From: a virus
Taxonomy: Duplodnaviria; Heunggongvirae; Uroviricota; Caudoviricetes
DNA: 42,126 bases
Reading direction: 5' to 3' (one strand)
Virus record (IMG/VR): IMGVR_UViG_2541047766_000003
Position 1 is the first letter of the stretch, and each line of letters begins with the position of its first letter. The notes under the pieces are model-generated. The model worked only from the letters and a program-made list of their open reading frames with translations, had not been told where the DNA came from and ran no database searches. Shown here one piece after another: positions 6,475 through 39,331 of this stretch. The translations under genes and the position numbers were made by a program.

Positions 6475-6578
6475 GTTAAATCTCCAGATAGTCGCAGCAC
6501 CCGTTGCGCCGCATATCTGGTTATTCTATTACCTGAAAAACCACATATGGATAGAAAGACTATAAATACCAATAGATA

Positions 6579-6593
6579 TTACCTTTCGGGTAA
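6579..6593. promoter_or_regulatory. Operator-like palindrome TTACC-TTTCG-GGTAA
   Basis: Same 15-bp palindrome family as the OL/OR sites; lies in the divergent tailspike / small-gene intergenic region. Confidence 0.5.
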
Positions 6594-6630: not shown

Positions 6631-6650
6631 TACTGTATAAATATACAGTT
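6631..6650 (+). promoter_or_regulatory. LexA (SOS) box
   Basis: tACTGTataaatatACAGtt = CTGT-N8-ACAG with AT-rich spacer, 20 bp before the ATG at 6670. Confidence 0.7.
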
Positions 6651-6669: not shown

Positions 6670-6927
6670 ATGCAGCAGTATCACTATCCACTGGAAGACG
6701 GATTTACCGAAAGGATTCACACGCCGGGAGGCGTCAGGTCACTGGTGGAGGGATCGCACTTGATGAAATTACTCCGGGATCTCGATAAGGATGGATTTAA
6801 TGTCGATGGCCCACTTGCCGAACTGACTGCACTGATTAACTACGTCACCAGCTCACAGATGTCTATGCAGGATCTGCAAACACATCTCGACTATTGTGCC
6901 GAACAATTACGAAAACAAACCACATAA
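6670..6927 (+). CDS. Small protein (85 aa) homologous to C-terminal domain of the Bro-N protein; candidate SOS-controlled antirepressor
   Basis: RBS ggagaag then ATG; ...LMKLLRDLDKDGFNVDGPLAELT...DLQTH aligns with the C-terminus of 8075..8770 (...LMNLLNQLQDDGHDVSGAAAELT...DIQTH). Confidence 0.6.
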   Translation: MQQYHYPLEDGFTERIHTPGGVRSLVEGSHLMKLLRDLDKDGFNVDGPLAELTALINYVTSSQMSMQDLQTHLDYCAEQLRKQTT

Positions 6928-6932
6928 AGAAA

Positions 6933-6950
6933 AGGCCGCTAGAGCGGCCT
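6933..6950. terminator. Hairpin terminator between convergent genes
   Basis: aggccgc-taga-gcggcct; T-run follows on the minus strand. Confidence 0.5.
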
Positions 6951-7677
6951 ATCGTTTCGCTTTGTGCTCGTCCCAGCACGTTTTACACCATGCCATTAAG
7001 CCATCCGCATTTTGATTATTAGGGTAAAAGCTGGTTCGTTTTCTGCGGACATTACAAATTGGGCACCACTTCATATGACGTGTATTCTTTGGGCCATCGA
7101 GACACCTTGCACACCACTTAGTCAATCCATCTGGATTTTTTGACGATTTCCTGAACTTCTCATACGGAAGGTTTATTCTGCATCGCAAGCACTGCTTGCT
7201 ACCACTTGAAACTCTGTTAGCTGATTCTTCTTTTGGCGGCGATACAGAAGGTATTCTTGCTGGCTCTGATACTGCCTGAGGTGCTTTTTTAGATGACTGA
7301 GACGATATGTCATCACCAGGGAATCTTCCATGATATGCCGGAGGCGTTGACACTCCAGGTGGAAGCTCAGCTGTAAACGGCTTTGGCTGAATCAGTTGCC
7401 TCTCTTTTGCTAACTCCTGCTGTTTATAATATGTCTGGATTACCGCACTATCATAAGCAGGAGGTGCGGAAATATTAGGCGCATTACCTCCAGTTTTTTG
7501 AAACTGAGTAGAGGTGTGTTCTATCACCTGTGTACGATTAATCGTTATCTCCCCATCTTCGGTCTTTATCGTTTTGTTATGATTAACGACCGTACGATCA
7601 GAGATCTTAGTCTTGTTCTGGTTGATAACGTAAATAATCACCGCAACCACACCAACAACTATCCAGAAAACTTCCAT
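6949..7677 (-). CDS. Membrane-anchored protein with two PPAY motifs and a tandem C-terminal zinc ribbon
   Basis: N-terminal TM helix (VFWIVVGVVAVIIYVI); APPAY and TPPAY; four CxxC pairs (CLRC, CARC, CPIC, CKTC). Confidence 0.6.
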   Translation of the reverse strand: MEVFWIVVGVVAVIIYVINQNKTKISDRTVVNHNKTIKTEDGEITINRTQVIEHTSTQFQKTGGNAPNISAPPAYDSAVIQTYYKQQELAKERQLIQPKPFTAELPPGVSTPPAYHGRFPGDDISSQSSKKAPQAVSEPARIPSVSPPKEESANRVSSGSKQCLRCRINLPYEKFRKSSKNPDGLTKWCARCLDGPKNTRHMKWCPICNVRRKRTSFYPNNQNADGLMAWCKTCWDEHKAKR

Positions 7678-7697: not shown

Positions 7698-7712
7698 TTA
7701 CCTTAAAGGTAA
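7698..7712. promoter_or_regulatory. Operator-like palindrome TTACC-TTAAA-GGTAA overlapping the promoter of 6949..7677
   Basis: 21 bp upstream of the minus-strand start; TTGATC -35-like element upstream on the minus strand. Confidence 0.5.
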
Positions 7713-7790: not shown

Positions 7791-7805
7791 TTACCTTTGC
7801 GGTAA
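7791..7805. promoter_or_regulatory. Operator-like palindrome TTACC-TTTGC-GGTAA with rightward promoter (TTGATT-18 bp-TATCAT)
   Basis: -35/-10-like hexamers immediately precede the palindrome; would transcribe toward the Bro-N gene. Confidence 0.45.
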
Positions 7806-8074
7806 ATTTACATCGCACTCCTCTTGTGTCATAGTAATCGGGCACTGGAAAAATCCAGTGCCGGGATTGGCGTCCCGGATTACTAAAAGGCGCATTCACC
7901 GCGCAAGCGGTTTTTTTATGCGTATAGCACGGCCACATTCGTATTATGGTGGGCTGTGTGGGGGCACCGAAAGGTGCGCCGGGTCCTTTTAGCCGGTTAC
8001 GCCAACCCTGCACAGTTCACCACCAACCGATTGGCGTCGGTAGTGGTGATTAACCAGACTAAAAGGTAACCACT

Positions 8075-8770
8075 ATGACAGCTACAAAAAGCACGTCCAT
8101 TTTTTCTTTCGAATCCCAAGCCGATATACGGGTAATCGTCATTAATGGTGAGCCATGGTTTATCGCTTCAGATGTTTGTCGGGCTATAGGCATAGCAAAC
8201 CATCGAGATGCTGTTCGAAAACTTGATGATGATGAGAAGGGCGTCGCTTCAACCGACACCCCTGGCGGTGAGCAAGAATCGATCATCATCTCCGAGTCAG
8301 GCCTCTACACACTGATCCTCCGCTGCCGCGATGCGGTGACACCAGGCACTATCCCCTACCGCTTTCGTAAATGGGTTACAGGTGAGGTTCTTCCTCAGAT
8401 CCGCCGCACCGGAAGTTACATTAAAAACTCGCTCCCGCAGGAAGAACGCATAAAGATGGTTGCCGACCAGGTAGCCAACGCCACGGCGTCAGCAGTAATG
8501 CAGGCGATGAAGATAGAGAACAAAACCTACAGCGCCCCGCTGAAGCCCGGCTACCGTAGCCTGATTCACTCGCCGTCTGGTGTTCTCGGCCTGACGGAAA
8601 ACTCACTGCTGATGAATCTGCTGAACCAGTTACAGGACGACGGGCACGATGTATCGGGCGCGGCGGCGGAGCTGACCACCATGTTCTGCTACATCGTCGG
8701 TGTGAGCAAATGCCTGCGTGATATCCAGACGCACGCGGAGTACATCAACGACAAAGCAGGGTTCTTCTGA
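8075..8770 (+). CDS. Bro-N domain protein, antirepressor-like
   Basis: N-terminal Bro-N signature (FSFESQADIRVIVINGEPWFIASDVCRAIGIANHRDAVRKLDDDEK); C-terminal domain is paralogous to 6670..6927. Confidence 0.8.
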   Translation: MTATKSTSIFSFESQADIRVIVINGEPWFIASDVCRAIGIANHRDAVRKLDDDEKGVASTDTPGGEQESIIISESGLYTLILRCRDAVTPGTIPYRFRKWVTGEVLPQIRRTGSYIKNSLPQEERIKMVADQVANATASAVMQAMKIENKTYSAPLKPGYRSLIHSPSGVLGLTENSLLMNLLNQLQDDGHDVSGAAAELTTMFCYIVGVSKCLRDIQTHAEYINDKAGFF

Positions 8771-8842: not shown

Positions 8843-8857
8843 TTACCTTAAAGGTAA
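8843..8857. promoter_or_regulatory. Operator-like palindrome TTACC-TTAAA-GGTAA overlapping RBS region of 8870..9037
   Basis: Identical 15-mer to the 7698 site; ends 13 bp before the ATG. Confidence 0.5.
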
Positions 8858-8869
8858 AGGAGGCGCGAT

Positions 8870-9037
8870 ATGACAGCGTTGAAAAATCGTACTCAGCACA
8901 ATAAACAAGCCAAGCAATGCTGGGATGTCATTGGAAAAGTTATGCTTGGCCGCGCAAGCAAAGAGCGCGACAAGGATATGGTTTACCAGACAGGAACATC
9001 TTTCAGCGACTTCAAGGCGGCATTTCGCTCCAAATAG
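8870..9037 (+). CDS. Small basic protein (55 aa), unknown function
   Basis: Strong RBS aaggagg 7 nt before ATG; not in the ORF track because under 60 aa. Confidence 0.5.
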   Translation: MTALKNRTQHNKQAKQCWDVIGKVMLGRASKERDKDMVYQTGTSFSDFKAAFRSK

Positions 9038-26322: not shown

Positions 26323-26359
26323 TTGACATTTAACGCACGAATTATTACCTTTCAGGTAA
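26323..26359 (+). promoter_or_regulatory. Promoter-like TTGACA plus operator palindrome TTACC-TTTCA-GGTAA
   Basis: Architecture parallels pL (ttgacat...attattacc...ggtaa); faces the tRNA/Gp49 islet. Confidence 0.45.
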
Positions 26360-26681: not shown

Positions 26682-26758
26682 GTGGCATTAGCTCAGTTGG
26701 ACAGAGCAACCGCCTTCTAAGCGGTTGGTCGCAGGTTCGAATCCTGCATGCTACGCCA
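26682..26758 (+). tRNA. tRNA-Arg (anticodon TCT)
   Basis: Cloverleaf folded by hand: acceptor GTGGCAT/ATGCTAC, D-stem GCTC/GAGC, anticodon stem ACCGC/GCGGT with loop CTTCTAA, T-arm GCAGG-TTCGAAT-CCTGC, encoded CCA. Confidence 0.85.
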
Positions 26759-26845: not shown

Positions 26846-26921
26846 AGCAGGACGCCATTGCGATGACTTCATGCTGTAAACCAGTACAGCCACGGAAGGC
26901 AGAACTCATTGCTTCCAGTTC

Positions 26922-26956: not shown

Positions 26957-27328
26957 ATGAACGACCAGCAAATCGAAAAAGAAATCGTTGAGAAAGGCAA
27001 AACGGCACCGCGCGTTACGCCAGACCATATCGAAGGCATTATTGCTCAGGAGGCATATTTCACAGCAGAAGATGGTGCCTTTGGCAAAGCCATAAAAGCG
27101 AAACATACTGGCGGAGAGGTAAACTACCAGCCGCACGAATCACTTTCTCTGCTGACGTTCTGCGTCCTGGTGCTGCGCAACGGCTTCACCGTCACCGGAG
27201 AGAGCGCCTGTGCAAGCCAGGAAAACTTTGATGCAGAAATTGGTCGGAAGATTGCCCGGCAGAATGCTGTAAACAAAATCTGGATGCTCGAAGGTTACTT
27301 GCTGAAGCAGAAGCTAAGCGAGCAATAA
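26957..27328 (+). CDS. Gp49-like phage protein (Phage_gp49_66-type), unknown function
   Basis: 123 aa; ...LLTFCVLVLRNGFTVTGESACASQENFDAEIGRKIARQNAVNKIWMLEGY recalled as this family; opposite strand to flanking late genes. Confidence 0.6.
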   Translation: MNDQQIEKEIVEKGKTAPRVTPDHIEGIIAQEAYFTAEDGAFGKAIKAKHTGGEVNYQPHESLSLLTFCVLVLRNGFTVTGESACASQENFDAEIGRKIARQNAVNKIWMLEGYLLKQKLSEQ

Positions 27329-28894: not shown

Positions 28895-29487
28895 TGATTA
28901 CCATCCTGACGTTCTTTGAGTCGCTTCCTGGCTGCTGCTATGCGATCAGCAATTGTCACATTCACATTAACATCCAGGCGTTCTTTGAATGCGTTGACGT
29001 CGACGTGCTTACCAATCAGTTCGAGGTTCTTCACCTTGTCAGGCCATTTAATTTTTTTGAGGATTGTCTCTATCGAATCCTCGTTCATGTTCATGATGGT
29101 CGATGACAGATCAAAGCCACTAAGCGTAGTGCGCCAGATTTTCGGCCACTCACGGATTGGTTTAAGGCTCCCATCGTCGTTGAGGATGTCGATCACGTCC
29201 ATCTGGTCGATCTCCACCAGGCGCATGAGAACGTAATCAGCACTGACGCGCATTCGTTTGTTGCGCTCCTCCATCAACTCGGCAATCCGTTTTTGAATGC
29301 GTTCATCGCGCATCATGACACTGGCTTTAACTGCCGCTGTATTTGGGGAGAATCCTGCGTTAATCGCTGCCTGAGTCTGGTTTTCAGGCGTTTTGATGTA
29401 TGACTGGCAATAAGCCTCCTGCATTGCTGTTAGTGGCTTAAATTGCGTTGATTTGCGTTTATAGGTTTTAGGTTCAGCAGGCATCAT
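28891..29487 (-). CDS. Terminase small subunit (start uncertain; the open frame runs to 29565)
   Basis: Terminase_2-like ...FKPLTAMQEAYCQSYIKTPENQTQAAINAGFSPNTA...; start set at the internal MMPAEP because the upstream 26 codons translate a DNA tandem repeat. Confidence 0.7.
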   Translation of the reverse strand: MMPAEPKTYKRKSTQFKPLTAMQEAYCQSYIKTPENQTQAAINAGFSPNTAAVKASVMMRDERIQKRIAELMEERNKRMRVSADYVLMRLVEIDQMDVIDILNDDGSLKPIREWPKIWRTTLSGFDLSSTIMNMNEDSIETILKKIKWPDKVKNLELIGKHVDVNAFKERLDVNVNVTIADRIAAARKRLKERQDGNQ

Positions 29488-33979: not shown

Positions 33980-33994
33980 TTACCTCTAAGGTAA
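33980..33994. promoter_or_regulatory. Operator-like palindrome TTACC-TCTAA-GGTAA immediately upstream of the DUF1064 gene
   Basis: Ends 4 bp before the ATG; TTGATT -35-like element upstream on the minus strand. Confidence 0.5.
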
Positions 33995-34041
33995 TTAAAA
34001 ACCACATAAGACACGAAATCAATAGAATTTAGAATATTTTG

Positions 34042-34056
34042 TTACCCAATAGGTAA
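34042..34056. promoter_or_regulatory. Operator-like palindrome TTACC-CAATA-GGTAA
   Basis: Second site in the same intergenic region, after a terminator-like hairpin at the end of the P-like gene. Confidence 0.5.
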
Positions 34057-36057: not shown

Positions 36058-36288
36058 TCATGAGTAGAAGAAGTATGCCAGTTCTGCTTTTGAGCGCAGC
36101 CATTGTCTTGTTTTACAGGCTTTAAAAAGCCCATTCATCAATACTTTACCTGGCATTTTGCGCTTACCTGTTAAGTGAGTCTGGATATAATGACTCGTCG
36201 TTCCGGCTTCCTGTGCGAAGGCTTCACGCTCATCCGGAGTAAGTGCAAGCCAGTGCTTTTTGAAATCGAAATGTCCGTTATCGCTCAT
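36058..36288 (-). CDS. Cro-like HTH regulator
   Basis: Divergent from the repressor; HTH segment EAFAQEAGTTSHYIQTHLTG. Confidence 0.6.
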   Translation of the reverse strand: MSDNGHFDFKKHWLALTPDEREAFAQEAGTTSHYIQTHLTGKRKMPGKVLMNGLFKACKTRQWLRSKAELAYFFYS

Positions 36289-36324
36289 AGCTATTGCCTG
36301 ATATTTATTTCAGATAATAAATAT

Positions 36325-36387
36325 TCACCCATAAGGTAACAAAAATCAAGGATAGTTACCTATGGGGTGCATTTACCTATTGGGTAA
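36325..36387. promoter_or_regulatory. OR-like tripartite operator
   Basis: Three palindromes: tCACC-CATAA-GGTAA (36325..36339), TTACC-TATGG-GGTgc (36356..36370), TTACC-TATTG-GGTAA (36373..36387). Confidence 0.6.
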
Positions 36388-36442
36388 TATTGCTTTAAAT
36401 TGAATCATCTACTGATTCATATATGAGGCGATTTTCCAGAAA

Positions 36443-37027
36443 ATGAAAAGTATCCAGGACGTCCGCAGGCAAAATCTCAACGACTTGATCGACCGTGAAT
36501 TCAATGGTGTTCAGACGCGGATGGCTGAAAAACTTGGAACTCAGGCAAATCTGGTAAACCGCTGGGCTCTTGGCAAGAAGGTTATCGGCGACCAGGTTGC
36601 GCGAAAAATTGAAGCTGCCGCCAATAAACCCCGTAACTGGCTTGATATCGATCGCTCGCTTTCTCAGGAAGGTTTTCAGCCTGTCGGCCCAAGCGACATT
36701 GGTCAGCTGGCGGCTCACAACCTGGAACGCTGGATGAGCGAAAGCCGCGACCTTTCAACACAGGGAAAACTTCACCGCGCATCCGGCGTCGCCCAGGTGA
36801 CAATCAGCCGCCTGTTAAACAATGAGGTCAGCGTTTCCATTTCCACCCTGGAGAATGTTGCATCTGCATTCGGGCGTCACGGATATGAACTACTGATTCA
36901 CCCGCACGACCCTGCAACTATCAACTATGACCGCTCGCGCTACGCATTGTTACCTGAAACCGAGAAAGCAAAGATCGAAAGTTACATTGAATTTGTCATC
37001 AACCAGAACGAAAAAAACAAACAATAA
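36443..37027 (+). CDS. Prophage repressor, dual-HTH, without LexA-like peptidase domain
   Basis: Position between the divergent cro-like gene and the pL-side operon; two HTH-like segments; no Ala-Gly/Ser-Lys S24 signature. Confidence 0.7.
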   Translation: MKSIQDVRRQNLNDLIDREFNGVQTRMAEKLGTQANLVNRWALGKKVIGDQVARKIEAAANKPRNWLDIDRSLSQEGFQPVGPSDIGQLAAHNLERWMSESRDLSTQGKLHRASGVAQVTISRLLNNEVSVSISTLENVASAFGRHGYELLIHPHDPATINYDRSRYALLPETEKAKIESYIEFVINQNEKNKQ

Positions 37028-37048
37028 AATAATACTTTTCAGTAAGTA

Positions 37049-37072
37049 AGCCGCCTTCTGGCGGCTTTTTTA
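37049..37072 (+). terminator. Rho-independent terminator after the repressor gene
   Basis: agccgcc-ttct-ggcggct followed by tttttt. Confidence 0.7.
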
Positions 37073-37084
37073 TTGCCTATACTA

Positions 37085-37161
37085 TTACCTAATGGGTAAT
37101 TTTTTTAACTCATATCTATTGACATCAAACCAAATACGCATAATTATTACCTAAACGGTAA
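37085..37161 (+). promoter_or_regulatory. OL-like operators and pL-like promoter
   Basis: TTACC-TAATG-GGTAA (37085..37099), TTGACA at 37119..37124, TTACC-TAAAC-GGTAA (37147..37161) overlapping the -10/+1 region. Confidence 0.55.
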
Positions 37162-37180
37162 CAGACCGAGGTAACAAGTT

Positions 37181-37335: not shown

Positions 37336-37635
37336 ATGAACGTTAATCAGCAGAAAAATCTTCAAAAAATCATGCTGGCATTCGACAAGGACTACCGCCT
37401 GTCAGAACAGCTATATGACCGACAAGTTGAACTGATTGAGAGCATCCGACTTCATCAACTGTCCTCAACTTTCGACGTTGTAACAGGCAAAGGCGTTCGT
37501 CAGGAAGTACTGGAGGCTGCTAAAGACAGCCCTGAGTTCGAAGAACTGATGGATGCCTATCGGCGAGAGGCAATGGCAATTATCGCCCGCTGGGATCTGG
37601 CGGATCAGCTTGATGGACAGAGGGACGCGGCATGA
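37336..37635 (+). CDS. Hypothetical early protein
   Basis: RBS gggaggg; 99 aa. Confidence 0.5.
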   Translation: MNVNQQKNLQKIMLAFDKDYRLSEQLYDRQVELIESIRLHQLSSTFDVVTGKGVRQEVLEAAKDSPEFEELMDAYRREAMAIIARWDLADQLDGQRDAA

Positions 37636-38453
37636 AACCGGGAATTTATTTCGACATCAGCAACGAAGACTACCACGCCGGTGACGGCGTGAGTAAGTCG
37701 CAACTGGACATGGTTGCCAAGAATCCGGCGCTTCTTAAATGGGTTCAGGCAGCACCAGAAGACGAAGAGAAAAAGTCTGCACTGGATATGGGAACCGCAT
37801 TGCACTGTCTGCTTCTGGAGCCTGGAGAGTTCGACAAACGCTTCATTGTTTCACCGAAATTCGATCGTCGGACAAAACAAGGTAAAGCTGACGAAGAAGC
37901 ATTTCTTCGTGATGTGGCGGATATGGGTATTACGGTACTTGATGTCGAGCAGTGGCGAAAACTGGAGCTGATGCGTGATAGCGCAATGGCTCACCCGGCT
38001 GCACGCTGGATGCTGGAAGCACCTGGTTACTGCGAAGCATCAATGTACTGGAACGATGAAGAGACTGGTGAGTTGTGCCGCATTCGTCCAGACAAATGGC
38101 TGAACGAGCACAACGTGATCGTCGACGTGAAAAAGGTTGCAGATATGGACCGTTTTGCACGCCACATCGAGGAATTCCGCTACCACGTGCAGGACGCAAT
38201 GTACCGCGAAGGCGCAATGAAGGTTACTGGTCAGCCGCATGGTTTTTTCTTTCTTGCCGTGAGCGAAAGCATTGATTGTGGTCGGTATCCGGTACGCGTG
38301 TTCGAGCTGGATGCGCCGGATGTCGATGCCGGGCACGCTCTGTTCCGCCGGGATCTGAATACCTATCACGAATGCCGCATCAACGATGAGTGGGGCGGAG
38401 TGGAAATTATTAAACGCCCTGACTGGGCACGTAAACAGGATATGTACGTATGA
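37632..38453 (+). CDS. PD-(D/E)XK exonuclease, RecE C-terminal-domain-like
   Basis: ...GELCRIRPDKWLNEHNVIVDVKKVADM... and gene order directly upstream of recT. Confidence 0.75.
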   Translation: MKPGIYFDISNEDYHAGDGVSKSQLDMVAKNPALLKWVQAAPEDEEKKSALDMGTALHCLLLEPGEFDKRFIVSPKFDRRTKQGKADEEAFLRDVADMGITVLDVEQWRKLELMRDSAMAHPAARWMLEAPGYCEASMYWNDEETGELCRIRPDKWLNEHNVIVDVKKVADMDRFARHIEEFRYHVQDAMYREGAMKVTGQPHGFFFLAVSESIDCGRYPVRVFELDAPDVDAGHALFRRDLNTYHECRINDEWGGVEIIKRPDWARKQDMYV

Positions 38454-39331
38454 GCAATGATATCGCAATCACATCACAACCAGGCGCAACTGTAGGTACT
38501 GCTGCGGCAATCTTCAGCCCGGAGGGCATGAATCAACTGGTGCGTTTCGCGGAGTTGATGTCACAAAGCAAAGCGACTGTACCGAAACATCTTGAAGGCA
38601 AACCTGCCGATTGTCTGGCGGTGACCATGCAGGCGGCACAGTGGGGAATGAATCCTTTCGCCGTGGCGCAGAAAACGCATGTGGTAAACGGAACGTTAGG
38701 CTACGAAGCACAGTTGGTAAACGCGGTCGTATCCTCTTCCAGCCTGCTAGCGACACGCCTGAATTATCGCTGGAGCGGTGACTGGTCGAATGTTAACGGC
38801 AAAACAGATAAATCACCGAATCTGACGGTAACTGTGTCAGCAGTTCTTAAAGGAGAAGCAGAACCCCGTGAGCTTACCATCAGTATGGCGCAAGCCGGAG
38901 TGCGTAACTCTCCATTGTGGGAACAGGATCCGCGCCAGCAGCTTGCCTATCTTTGCACGAAACGATGGGCTCGCCTGCACGCTCCTGATGTACTTCTCGG
39001 TGTTTACACCCCTGACGAATTACAGGAAACGGCACCGCGCGTTGAGCGAGACATTACTCCGCAAACGACCACTGCTGCGGGAATGAACAGTCTGATCAAC
39101 GCTAAACCAGCGAAAAAGCCTGATGAGCAAACGCGTAAAGCGGATAGCCGTGATCCAGAAGAAATGCTGATGGCCTTTACCAGCGCAGCGATGAATTACA
39201 GCACTGTCTCCGAACTGGATAAGGCTTACAAATACATTGCACAAAAACTTTCAGATGATGAAGAACTGCTGGCAAAAGCCACCGACGTTTACAGCGTTCG
39301 TCGGGAAGAATTAAACGAAACATCTATGTAA
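38450..39331 (+). CDS. recT: RecT-family single-strand annealing recombinase
   Basis: ...GMNPFAVAQKTHVVNGTLGYEAQLVNAVV...; paired with the exonuclease. Confidence 0.85.
   Translation: MSNDIAITSQPGATVGTAAAIFSPEGMNQLVRFAELMSQSKATVPKHLEGKPADCLAVTMQAAQWGMNPFAVAQKTHVVNGTLGYEAQLVNAVVSSSSLLATRLNYRWSGDWSNVNGKTDKSPNLTVTVSAVLKGEAEPRELTISMAQAGVRNSPLWEQDPRQQLAYLCTKRWARLHAPDVLLGVYTPDELQETAPRVERDITPQTTTAAGMNSLINAKPAKKPDEQTRKADSRDPEEMLMAFTSAAMNYSTVSELDKAYKYIAQKLSDDEELLAKATDVYSVRREELNETSM

Follow-up and report, generated by a model that had tools for sequence, protein, structure and literature searches.

How does a prophage leave lysogeny when its repressor carries no domain with which to cleave itself? The question is raised by positions 36,289 to 37,180 of the window (the whole 42,126-nucleotide stretch of viral DNA analyzed here), where a preliminary description had recognized an immunity switch built on a repressor without an autocleavage domain and had considered RecA-mediated self-cleavage unlikely. 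The window is that of a Uetakevirus prophage, a genus of epsilon15-like podophages, and is about 98% identical to the Escherichia coli O157 phage phiV10, including across the immunity region. Many further Uetakevirus relatives also match the immunity region at about 98%, and in a set of 5,426 complete genomes of E. coli, 539 (∼10%) carry it at an identity of at least 95%. We conclude that this region is very probably an immC-type switch of a phiV10/epsilon15-like prophage that operates, by analogy, like the published Rep/Ant antirepression system of phage SPC32H. The earlier reading of the locus as a switch on a non-S24 repressor was therefore sound as far as it went, and what it missed was the other half of the system: a small antirepressor gene at 6670-6927 and a second one, encoding a Bro-N::Ant fusion, at 8075-8770.

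Results

A repressor with two HTH segments and no S24 domain

The immunity region has a lambdoid layout in reverse, with rep on the plus strand (36443..37027) and a cro-like ORF diverging from it on the minus strand. An intrinsic terminator lies directly behind rep (37048..37075, plus strand; also annotated as a terminator in phiV10) and is followed by a promoter, two small ORFs and the genes for a PD-(D/E)XK nuclease and RecT, while the replication genes, encoding a DnaT-like/HTH_36 protein and a homologue of lambda P, are found 3′ of the cro-like ORF.

The rep product is a 194-amino-acid prophage repressor that is homologous to SPC32H Rep over its full length. In a phmmer search against the PDB, its residues 1-190 align with residues 2-197 of SPC32H Rep (5D50_A, E = 4e-42), the two proteins being about 42% identical, and a PDB sequence search also matches 5D4Z, the crystallized SPC32H Rep fragment that spans residues 92-198. 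The protein is 100% identical to p40 of phiV10 and to ORF21 of vB_EcoP_ZX5. Both HTH-like segments attributed to this ORF in the preliminary description were recovered, one as a Pfam HTH_3 match at residues 106-147 (E = 1.2e-9) and the other as a weak Cro/YdaS-type HTH at residues 21-61 (E = 3e-4, under the curated cut-off in Pfam); residues 1-76 are in addition covered by PHROG repressor families (E = 1e-10 to 1e-11). The domain search likewise agreed with the absence of an S24 peptidase signature, with no Peptidase_S24 match in Rep at E ≤ 0.1 in Pfam and none in NCBIfam. What the C-terminal half of Rep matches is not S24 but the MDD and CAD of SPC32H Rep. Since Rep has no S24 domain, RecA-stimulated self-cleavage is very probably not the route by which it is inactivated.

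By homology, we predict that Rep comprises an N-terminal HTH DNA-binding domain (approximately residues 1-72), a middle HTH-like dimerization domain (approximately residues 88-150) and a C-terminal tetramerization/Ant-binding domain (approximately residues 155-190). The architecture of SPC32H Rep is given as DBD-MDD-CAD (PMC9986798). Because the HTH at residues 106-147 corresponds to the middle domain of SPC32H Rep (PMC9986798), it would belong to the dimerization part of the protein. The claim of two HTH segments can thus be kept, but the way they were read needs correction, as the better-scoring one sits in the dimerization domain. By homology, the DNA binder of Rep is the N-terminal HTH and not the stronger Pfam match at residues 106-147. 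In agreement with this, one stretch of the N-terminal HTH, N36-L-V-N-R-W41, is invariant among four aligned Reps of 43-78% identity, and the corresponding helix of the second HTH varies. Strong conservation is also seen in the C-terminal tail of these four proteins (among others at Y162, D163, Y167, L170, P171, E174, K175, K177 and I178), and the C-terminal Ant-binding segment is invariant in them.

A tandem-HTH arrangement, in which a Rep monomer would place one HTH on each half-site of its operator, was considered and rejected. The half-sites are identical and the HTH segments differ, the second HTH corresponds to the dimerization domain of SPC32H Rep, and an invariant helix is seen in the first HTH only. 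AlphaFold2 run on the single Rep sequence gave an unusable model (mean pLDDT 45, pTM 0.22).

One palindrome at OR, at OL and throughout the genome

The three-site OR and two-site OL of one palindrome that had been described as flanking the repressor gene were borne out at the following positions. The shared palindrome is TTACC-N5-GGTAA, 15 bp in length. OR site 1 (TCACCCATAAGGTAA, 36325..36339) has one mismatch and overlaps the core of a predicted leftward promoter, PR (TTGTTA-17-TATTAT, 36342-36314, minus strand); site 2 (TTACCTATGGGGTGC, 36356..36370) has two mismatches and a position that is kept in five genomes; and site 3 (TTACCTATTGGGTAA, 36373..36387) is exact and adjoins the rep promoter region. 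At OL both sites are exact, the distal one (37085..37099) lying upstream of the −35 element of a predicted PL (TTGACA-17-AATTAT, 37119..37147, plus strand, 10/12 matches) and the proximal one (37147..37161), 62 bp away, overlapping its −10/+1 region. Both promoters were placed by consensus scans only, and we infer which promoter each operator would control. The spacing of the three-site OR and of the 62-bp OL pair is kept in the five genomes compared, namely the window, phiV10, Tyrion, the Klebsiella phage BUCT711 and SPC32H.

The AT-rich inverted repeat noted earlier at the start of the cro-like gene (ATATTTATT-N6-AATAAATAT, with 9-bp arms) is found exactly at 36301..36324, as reported, and contains the predicted −10 element of PR (TATTAT, 36319-36314, minus strand). 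It is real but only modestly unusual: when the 154 nt between the two genes were shuffled with dinucleotides preserved, 1.5% of the shuffles produced a perfect 9-bp repeat with a loop of 3-10 nt. Within the comparison of five genomes phiV10 has the repeat in identical form, Tyrion has it with two uncompensated arm changes, and neither SPC32H nor BUCT711 has it. A separate operator at this place, for example one for Cro, is unsupported, given that the repeat overlaps the predicted −10 of PR and is kept in the closest relatives only. Most likely it is simply the AT-rich stretch around the −10 element and start of PR.

The operator palindrome is by no means confined to the immunity region. The window holds 11 exact copies of TTACC-N5-GGTAA where 0.02 would be expected (100 dinucleotide shuffles), and in all five genomes it is the commonest 5+5 palindrome, with 8-11 exact copies in each. 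The copies are syntenic across the five genomes, being found at the start of terS, ahead of the block of head genes, in the gap between tailspike and ant, at PL and at OR. Before a DUF1064 gene there is a second paired-operator promoter module, whose two sites (33980-33994 and 34042-34056) are 62 bp apart and flank a TTGATT −35 element, with identical spacing in five of five genomes. Further copies in the window lie between tailspike and ant (6579..6593; exact in SPC32H, Tyrion and BUCT711, and with one mismatch in phiV10), ahead of the minus-strand gene at 6949-7677 (7698-7712), upstream of the isrK/C4/Bro-Ant module (7791..7805) and ahead of the ORF at 8870 (8843-8857), and other remote palindromes are located at 26345, 29505 and 35988. 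Across the Uetakeviruses examined, the palindrome precedes nearly every transcription unit, including terS, the head genes and tailspike/ant as well as Bro-Ant, PL, PR and the DUF1064 block. The half-site is unchanged even between Reps that are only 42-45% identical.

The cro-like gene (36058..36288, minus strand) heads the leftward, PR-type operon and encodes a 76-amino-acid HTH protein that matches phrog_35 (“transcriptional repressor”, E = 5.6e-13) and has no matches in PDB, Pfam or NCBIfam. The protein is 58-84% identical across the genus, a higher conservation than that of Rep, and its AGTTSHYIQ.HLT stretch is almost wholly invariant. Some of the palindromes might be read chiefly by this protein.

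A small antirepressor gene behind a LexA box

The gene ant (6670..6927, plus strand) lies about 30 kb from rep, outside the immunity region, and, like its SPC32H counterpart, diverges from the tailspike gene. It encodes an antirepressor of 85 amino acids with 88% identity to SPC32H Ant, 74 of 84 residues being identical to those of PDB 5D50_E (E = 1.3e-47). The ant promoter contains a LexA box, TACTGTATAAATATACAGTT with its flanks (6631..6650), within which CTGTATAAATATACAG (6633-6648) is a perfect CTGT-N8-ACAG with an AT-rich core, located 22 nt upstream of the start codon of ant; with flanks, the box scores 18/20 against the E. coli LexA consensus. A LexA box is present at the equivalent position in SPC32H, phiV10 and Tyrion, and BUCT711 has a one-mismatch box. 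The operator copy that lies about 40 bp upstream of the box is found in SPC32H, phiV10 and Tyrion too. LexA boxes as such are not enriched over the window (16 matches with ≤1 mismatch, against 15.3 expected), and among these matches only that of ant has both an AT-rich core and a position conserved in relatives.

These features, together with the likeness to SPC32H, lead us to predict that ant is LexA-controlled in the present phage. The ant gene of SPC32H is reportedly under LexA control, and a point mutation in its LexA box is said to turn that phage lytic. Later papers refer to Kim and Ryu (2013) when giving examples of phages that exploit host LexA to start the lytic cycle. The ZX5 paper mentions neither LexA nor the small ant gene (PMC9782041).

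A second antirepressor with isrK and C4 RNA matches upstream

The second antirepressor gene (8075..8770, plus strand) encodes a Bro-N domain (E = 2.3e-21) fused to an Ant-like C-terminal domain. Over its C-terminal 80 residues the fusion shares 42% identity with the small Ant and also matches 5D50_E (E = 1.9e-13), and the whole protein is 99.6% identical to ORF4 of ZX5. Upstream of the gene, and likewise on the plus strand, are Rfam matches to isrK (7842-7917, 76.7 bits, at gathering level) and to the C4 antisense RNA (RF01695, 7942-8027, 77.7 bits against a gathering score of 45). The isrK/C4 arrangement resembles the immI module of P1/P7. Only 47 nt separate the C4 match from the antirepressor start at 8075, and there is therefore no room for an icd-like ORF. 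Overexpression of ZX5 ORF4 lowers lysogen formation about 1,000-fold and rep transcription by 75% (PMC9782041). We think that the second antirepressor probably reinforces or diversifies induction.

Discussion

The connection between Rep and a LexA-boxed ant gene provides a likely answer to the question of how a repressor of this kind is removed. In a lysogen, the N-terminal HTH of Rep would bind the TTACC-N5-GGTAA palindromes, so that Rep would occlude both the rightward PL, flanked by a pair of sites at 62-bp spacing, and the leftward PR, through OR site 1; OR sites 2 and 3 would stand beside the rep promoter. Having no protease domain, Rep would stay uncleaved. DNA damage would instead lead to self-cleavage of LexA and thereby to derepression of the distant ant gene via its LexA-box promoter, and Ant would then bind the C-terminal domain of Rep and pull it from the DNA, releasing the lytic program. 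Bro-N::Ant, under the putative control of the C4/isrK RNAs and possibly of Rep, may provide another input to the switch or a loop that reinforces it, and Rep would probably also silence units beyond PL and PR.

Background from SPC32H on which this mechanism builds is the non-cleavage of Rep and the LexA control of ant in that phage, whose Rep is reportedly uncleaved during the SOS response. The SPC32H Rep tetramer is assembled via the middle dimerization domain and a p53-like C-terminal tetramerization domain. Our own basis consists of homologies, site positions and conservation; the tetramer and the binding of Ant are taken from the SPC32H literature, according to which Rep is tetrameric on palindromic DNA and an Ant tetramer binds two Rep dimers, disassembling Rep (PMC9638917). 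In ZX5, overexpression of the repressor lowers endolysin transcripts by 99.99% and holin transcripts by 99.97% and abolishes free phage (PMC9782041).

Other ways of operating such a switch have to be weighed. Rep might still be inactivated by RecA-stimulated self-cleavage if it possessed a cryptic catalytic site of a kind not recognizable as S24, and a missing Pfam match is indeed not proof of absence. Nevertheless, we consider this extremely improbable, as no S24 match appears at E ≤ 0.1, the full length of Rep is explained by its homology to SPC32H Rep (DNA binding, dimerization and tetramerization), and a conserved Ant with a LexA box is present. Alternatively, Bro-N::Ant with the C4/isrK RNAs may be the main induction route. 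Induction would then be for the most part spontaneous or independent of the SOS response, and the small Ant would be accessory or redundant. The antirepressor tested in ZX5 is in fact the Bro-N type (99.6% identity) and shifts the lysis-lysogeny balance, ZX5 lysogens spontaneously release 10^7 PFU/mL, and the gene in the window bears an Ant-like C-terminal domain and has the C4 and isrK matches upstream. However, the annotation of SPC32H contains the small ant only and no Bro-N::Ant, and the genus has kept both the small ant and the LexA box ahead of it, which argues for a primary role, so that a merely accessory Ant strikes us as quite improbable. The small ant alone is said to switch SPC32H.

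The palindromes outside OR and OL pose a separate problem, as their main reader may be the cro-like protein or some other regulator of the phage, for instance in lytic-phase control, in which case they would not be Rep operators. The almost invariant HTH of the cro-like protein (58-84% identity overall) parallels the invariant half-site, and several of the remote copies are located at ribosome-binding sites, away from obvious promoters. We nevertheless regard this as unlikely, since the remote copies share the OL sequence, the DUF1064 pair shares the 62-bp layout, and the putative recognition stretch of Rep is invariant too. In classical switches Cro and the repressor share operators, so both readings are compatible. 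If Rep is the reader of the remote copies, it would be a genome-wide silencer as well as the switch protein of OR and OL, a view that we hold tentatively and at present lean somewhat against. The fixed 62-bp pairs at two promoters would suit one looping tetramer. Should Rep bind the remote palindromes, Ant released through LexA would lift the repression of Bro-N::Ant and perhaps that of its own gene, forming a self-reinforcing latch.

SPC32H (Kim and Ryu 2013; Kim et al. 2016) is the closest published model for the Rep/Ant reading. Both phages belong to the genus Uetakevirus and share the palindrome and the OR/OL layout, and SPC32H has a full-length homologue of Rep, an Ant of 88% identity, the LexA box and the position of ant beside the tailspike gene. 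The two differ in that SPC32H has three OL-side sites and the window two, in that SPC32H is a Salmonella phage and the present host is E. coli, and in that the present phage carries the Bro-N::Ant fusion and the C4/isrK RNAs, which SPC32H does not have. The present Rep has diverged from that of SPC32H except in the DNA-recognition stretch and in the tail that binds Ant. Relative to phiV10 and ZX5 the differences are minor, with single-base changes in the operator spacers and an extra 242-amino-acid gene between ant and Bro-Ant here; in addition, recE and recT are separate ORFs here and are annotated as a fusion in phiV10. The phiV10 record (p40, p41, p23 and p24) already notes “two helix-turn-helix motifs”.

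The logic of a non-cleavable repressor with a LexA-controlled antirepressor encoded elsewhere is common to the Gifsy phages, to coliphage 186 with CI and Tum, and to N15 with AntC (PMC3121763). In Gifsy-1, -2 and -3 the repressors are GfoR, GtgR and GfhR and the LexA-controlled antirepressors GfoA, GftA and GfhA (PMC3121763). The Gifsy repressors are single-domain proteins of about 136-150 amino acids that resemble the N-terminal part of lambda CI over almost their entire length (PMC3121763), whereas Rep has 194 amino acids, three parts and a tetrameric homologue in SPC32H; from their descriptions, Rep and Ant stand apart from the Gifsy repressors and antirepressors, with Ant being of a different family. 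The lambda CI, P22 C2 and LexA type of system is similar in its divergent rep and cro, its three-site OR, and the leading of OL/PL into recombination and of PR into replication genes, but its proteins carry the S24 peptidase that Rep lacks. As with the immI region of P1/P7 and IsrK of Gifsy-1, C4 and isrK lie directly upstream of the antirepressor gene here, judging by the Rfam matches. Unlike P1/P7 immI, this module leaves no room for an icd-like ORF, and its antirepressor is a fusion of Bro-N with the SPC32H Ant domain.

The Rep/Ant immunity switch is already known: the literature covers it for the identical protein of ZX5 and phiV10, and the structure of the SPC32H homologue has been solved. 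With the identical repressor tested in ZX5 and the family structurally solved via SPC32H, the discovery value of the present analysis is small. Its sole new element is possibly the phased network of operators that extends across the genus and takes in the antirepressor loci, a modest but testable addition. A more immediate use lies in annotation, where rep is labeled only “helix-turn-helix domain-containing protein” and the small ant “hypothetical” in E. coli genomes. Recognizing the Rep and Ant pair predicts that the prophages carrying it are SOS-inducible via LexA and Ant rather than by repressor cleavage, and this prediction extends to the phiV10-type phages used as O157 reporter phages.

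Operator copies and the paired promoter module

The TTACC-N5-GGTAA palindrome of OR and OL, the putative operator of the 194-aa repressor Rep, recurs well outside the immunity region (36289-37180), with exact copies at 6579, 7698, 7791, 8843, 26345, 29505, 33980 and 34042 and copies carrying one mismatch at 29487 and 35988. Most of the remote copies lie just 5' of gene starts, and the remote palindromes have syntenic counterparts in SPC32H, Tyrion, BUCT711 and phiV10. Two pairs of operators in the window are built into the same promoter module, one containing PL (37085-37161) and the other preceding the DUF1064 gene (33980-34056). In each, a terminator is followed by the distal operator, a -35 element (TTGACA at PL, TTGATT at the DUF1064 gene), the proximal operator, a Shine-Dalgarno sequence and an ATG, and the operators are exactly 62 bp apart; this spacing is 62-63 bp in the paired module of all five Uetakevirus genomes.

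Another motif, ATGTGGTT, occurs five times (6539, 6918, 26293, 34000 and 35969), always on the minus strand, and all but one of these copies are found in promoter-like regions close to operator copies. The motif is weakly enriched, with 5 matches where 1.7 would be expected, a count that 3 of 100 shuffles reached. The stretch upstream of the tailspike gene around the copy at 6539 is kept in all five genomes.

Divergence and spread of the switch genes

Identity to the switch proteins of SPC32H is uneven, at 88% for the small antirepressor Ant, 76% for the cro-like protein and only about 42% for Rep. The part of Rep that varies across the genus comprises the linker and the dimerisation domain, and the operator half-site is unchanged despite this divergence. 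Among 5,426 complete E. coli genomes, 539 carry an immunity region at least 95% identical to that of the window, and their annotation describes rep as no more than a "helix-turn-helix domain-containing protein".

A second exact CTGT-N8-ACAG site, CTGTAAACCAGTACAG, lies at 26874-26889, about 70 nt upstream of the ORF at 26957-27328; it is shared with phiV10 and absent from SPC32H and Tyrion. Since its core is less AT-rich than that of the LexA box at ant, it may be either a weak LexA site or a chance occurrence.

Neighbouring genes and RNA elements

Between ant and the module of the second antirepressor gene, Bro-N::Ant, a gene for a 242-aa protein (6949-7677, minus strand) has an operator copy 21 nt ahead of its start. 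The protein combines an N-terminal hydrophobic segment with C-terminal Cys-rich repeats that match endonuclease VII, Lar-like and HNH-type families in PHROG. A CDS is lacking at the corresponding place in phiV10. The phiV10 record also differs in giving a single fused "recET" CDS, where the window, like SPC32H, Tyrion and BUCT711, has overlapping but separate ORFs for a PD-(D/E)XK nuclease (37632-38453) and RecT (38450-39331).

The prophage also carries a plus-strand tRNA gene (26682-26755), and a match to the Hfq-binding sRNA STnc490 lies on the minus strand at 1687-1810 (146 bits). Directly preceding Bro-N::Ant (start 8075) are two plus-strand, gathering-level Rfam matches, to isrK (7842-7917, 76.7 bits) and to C4 antisense RNA (7942-8027, 77.7 bits). 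This arrangement looks like an RNA control module of the P1/P7 immI or Gifsy-1 IsrK kind, here in a podophage.
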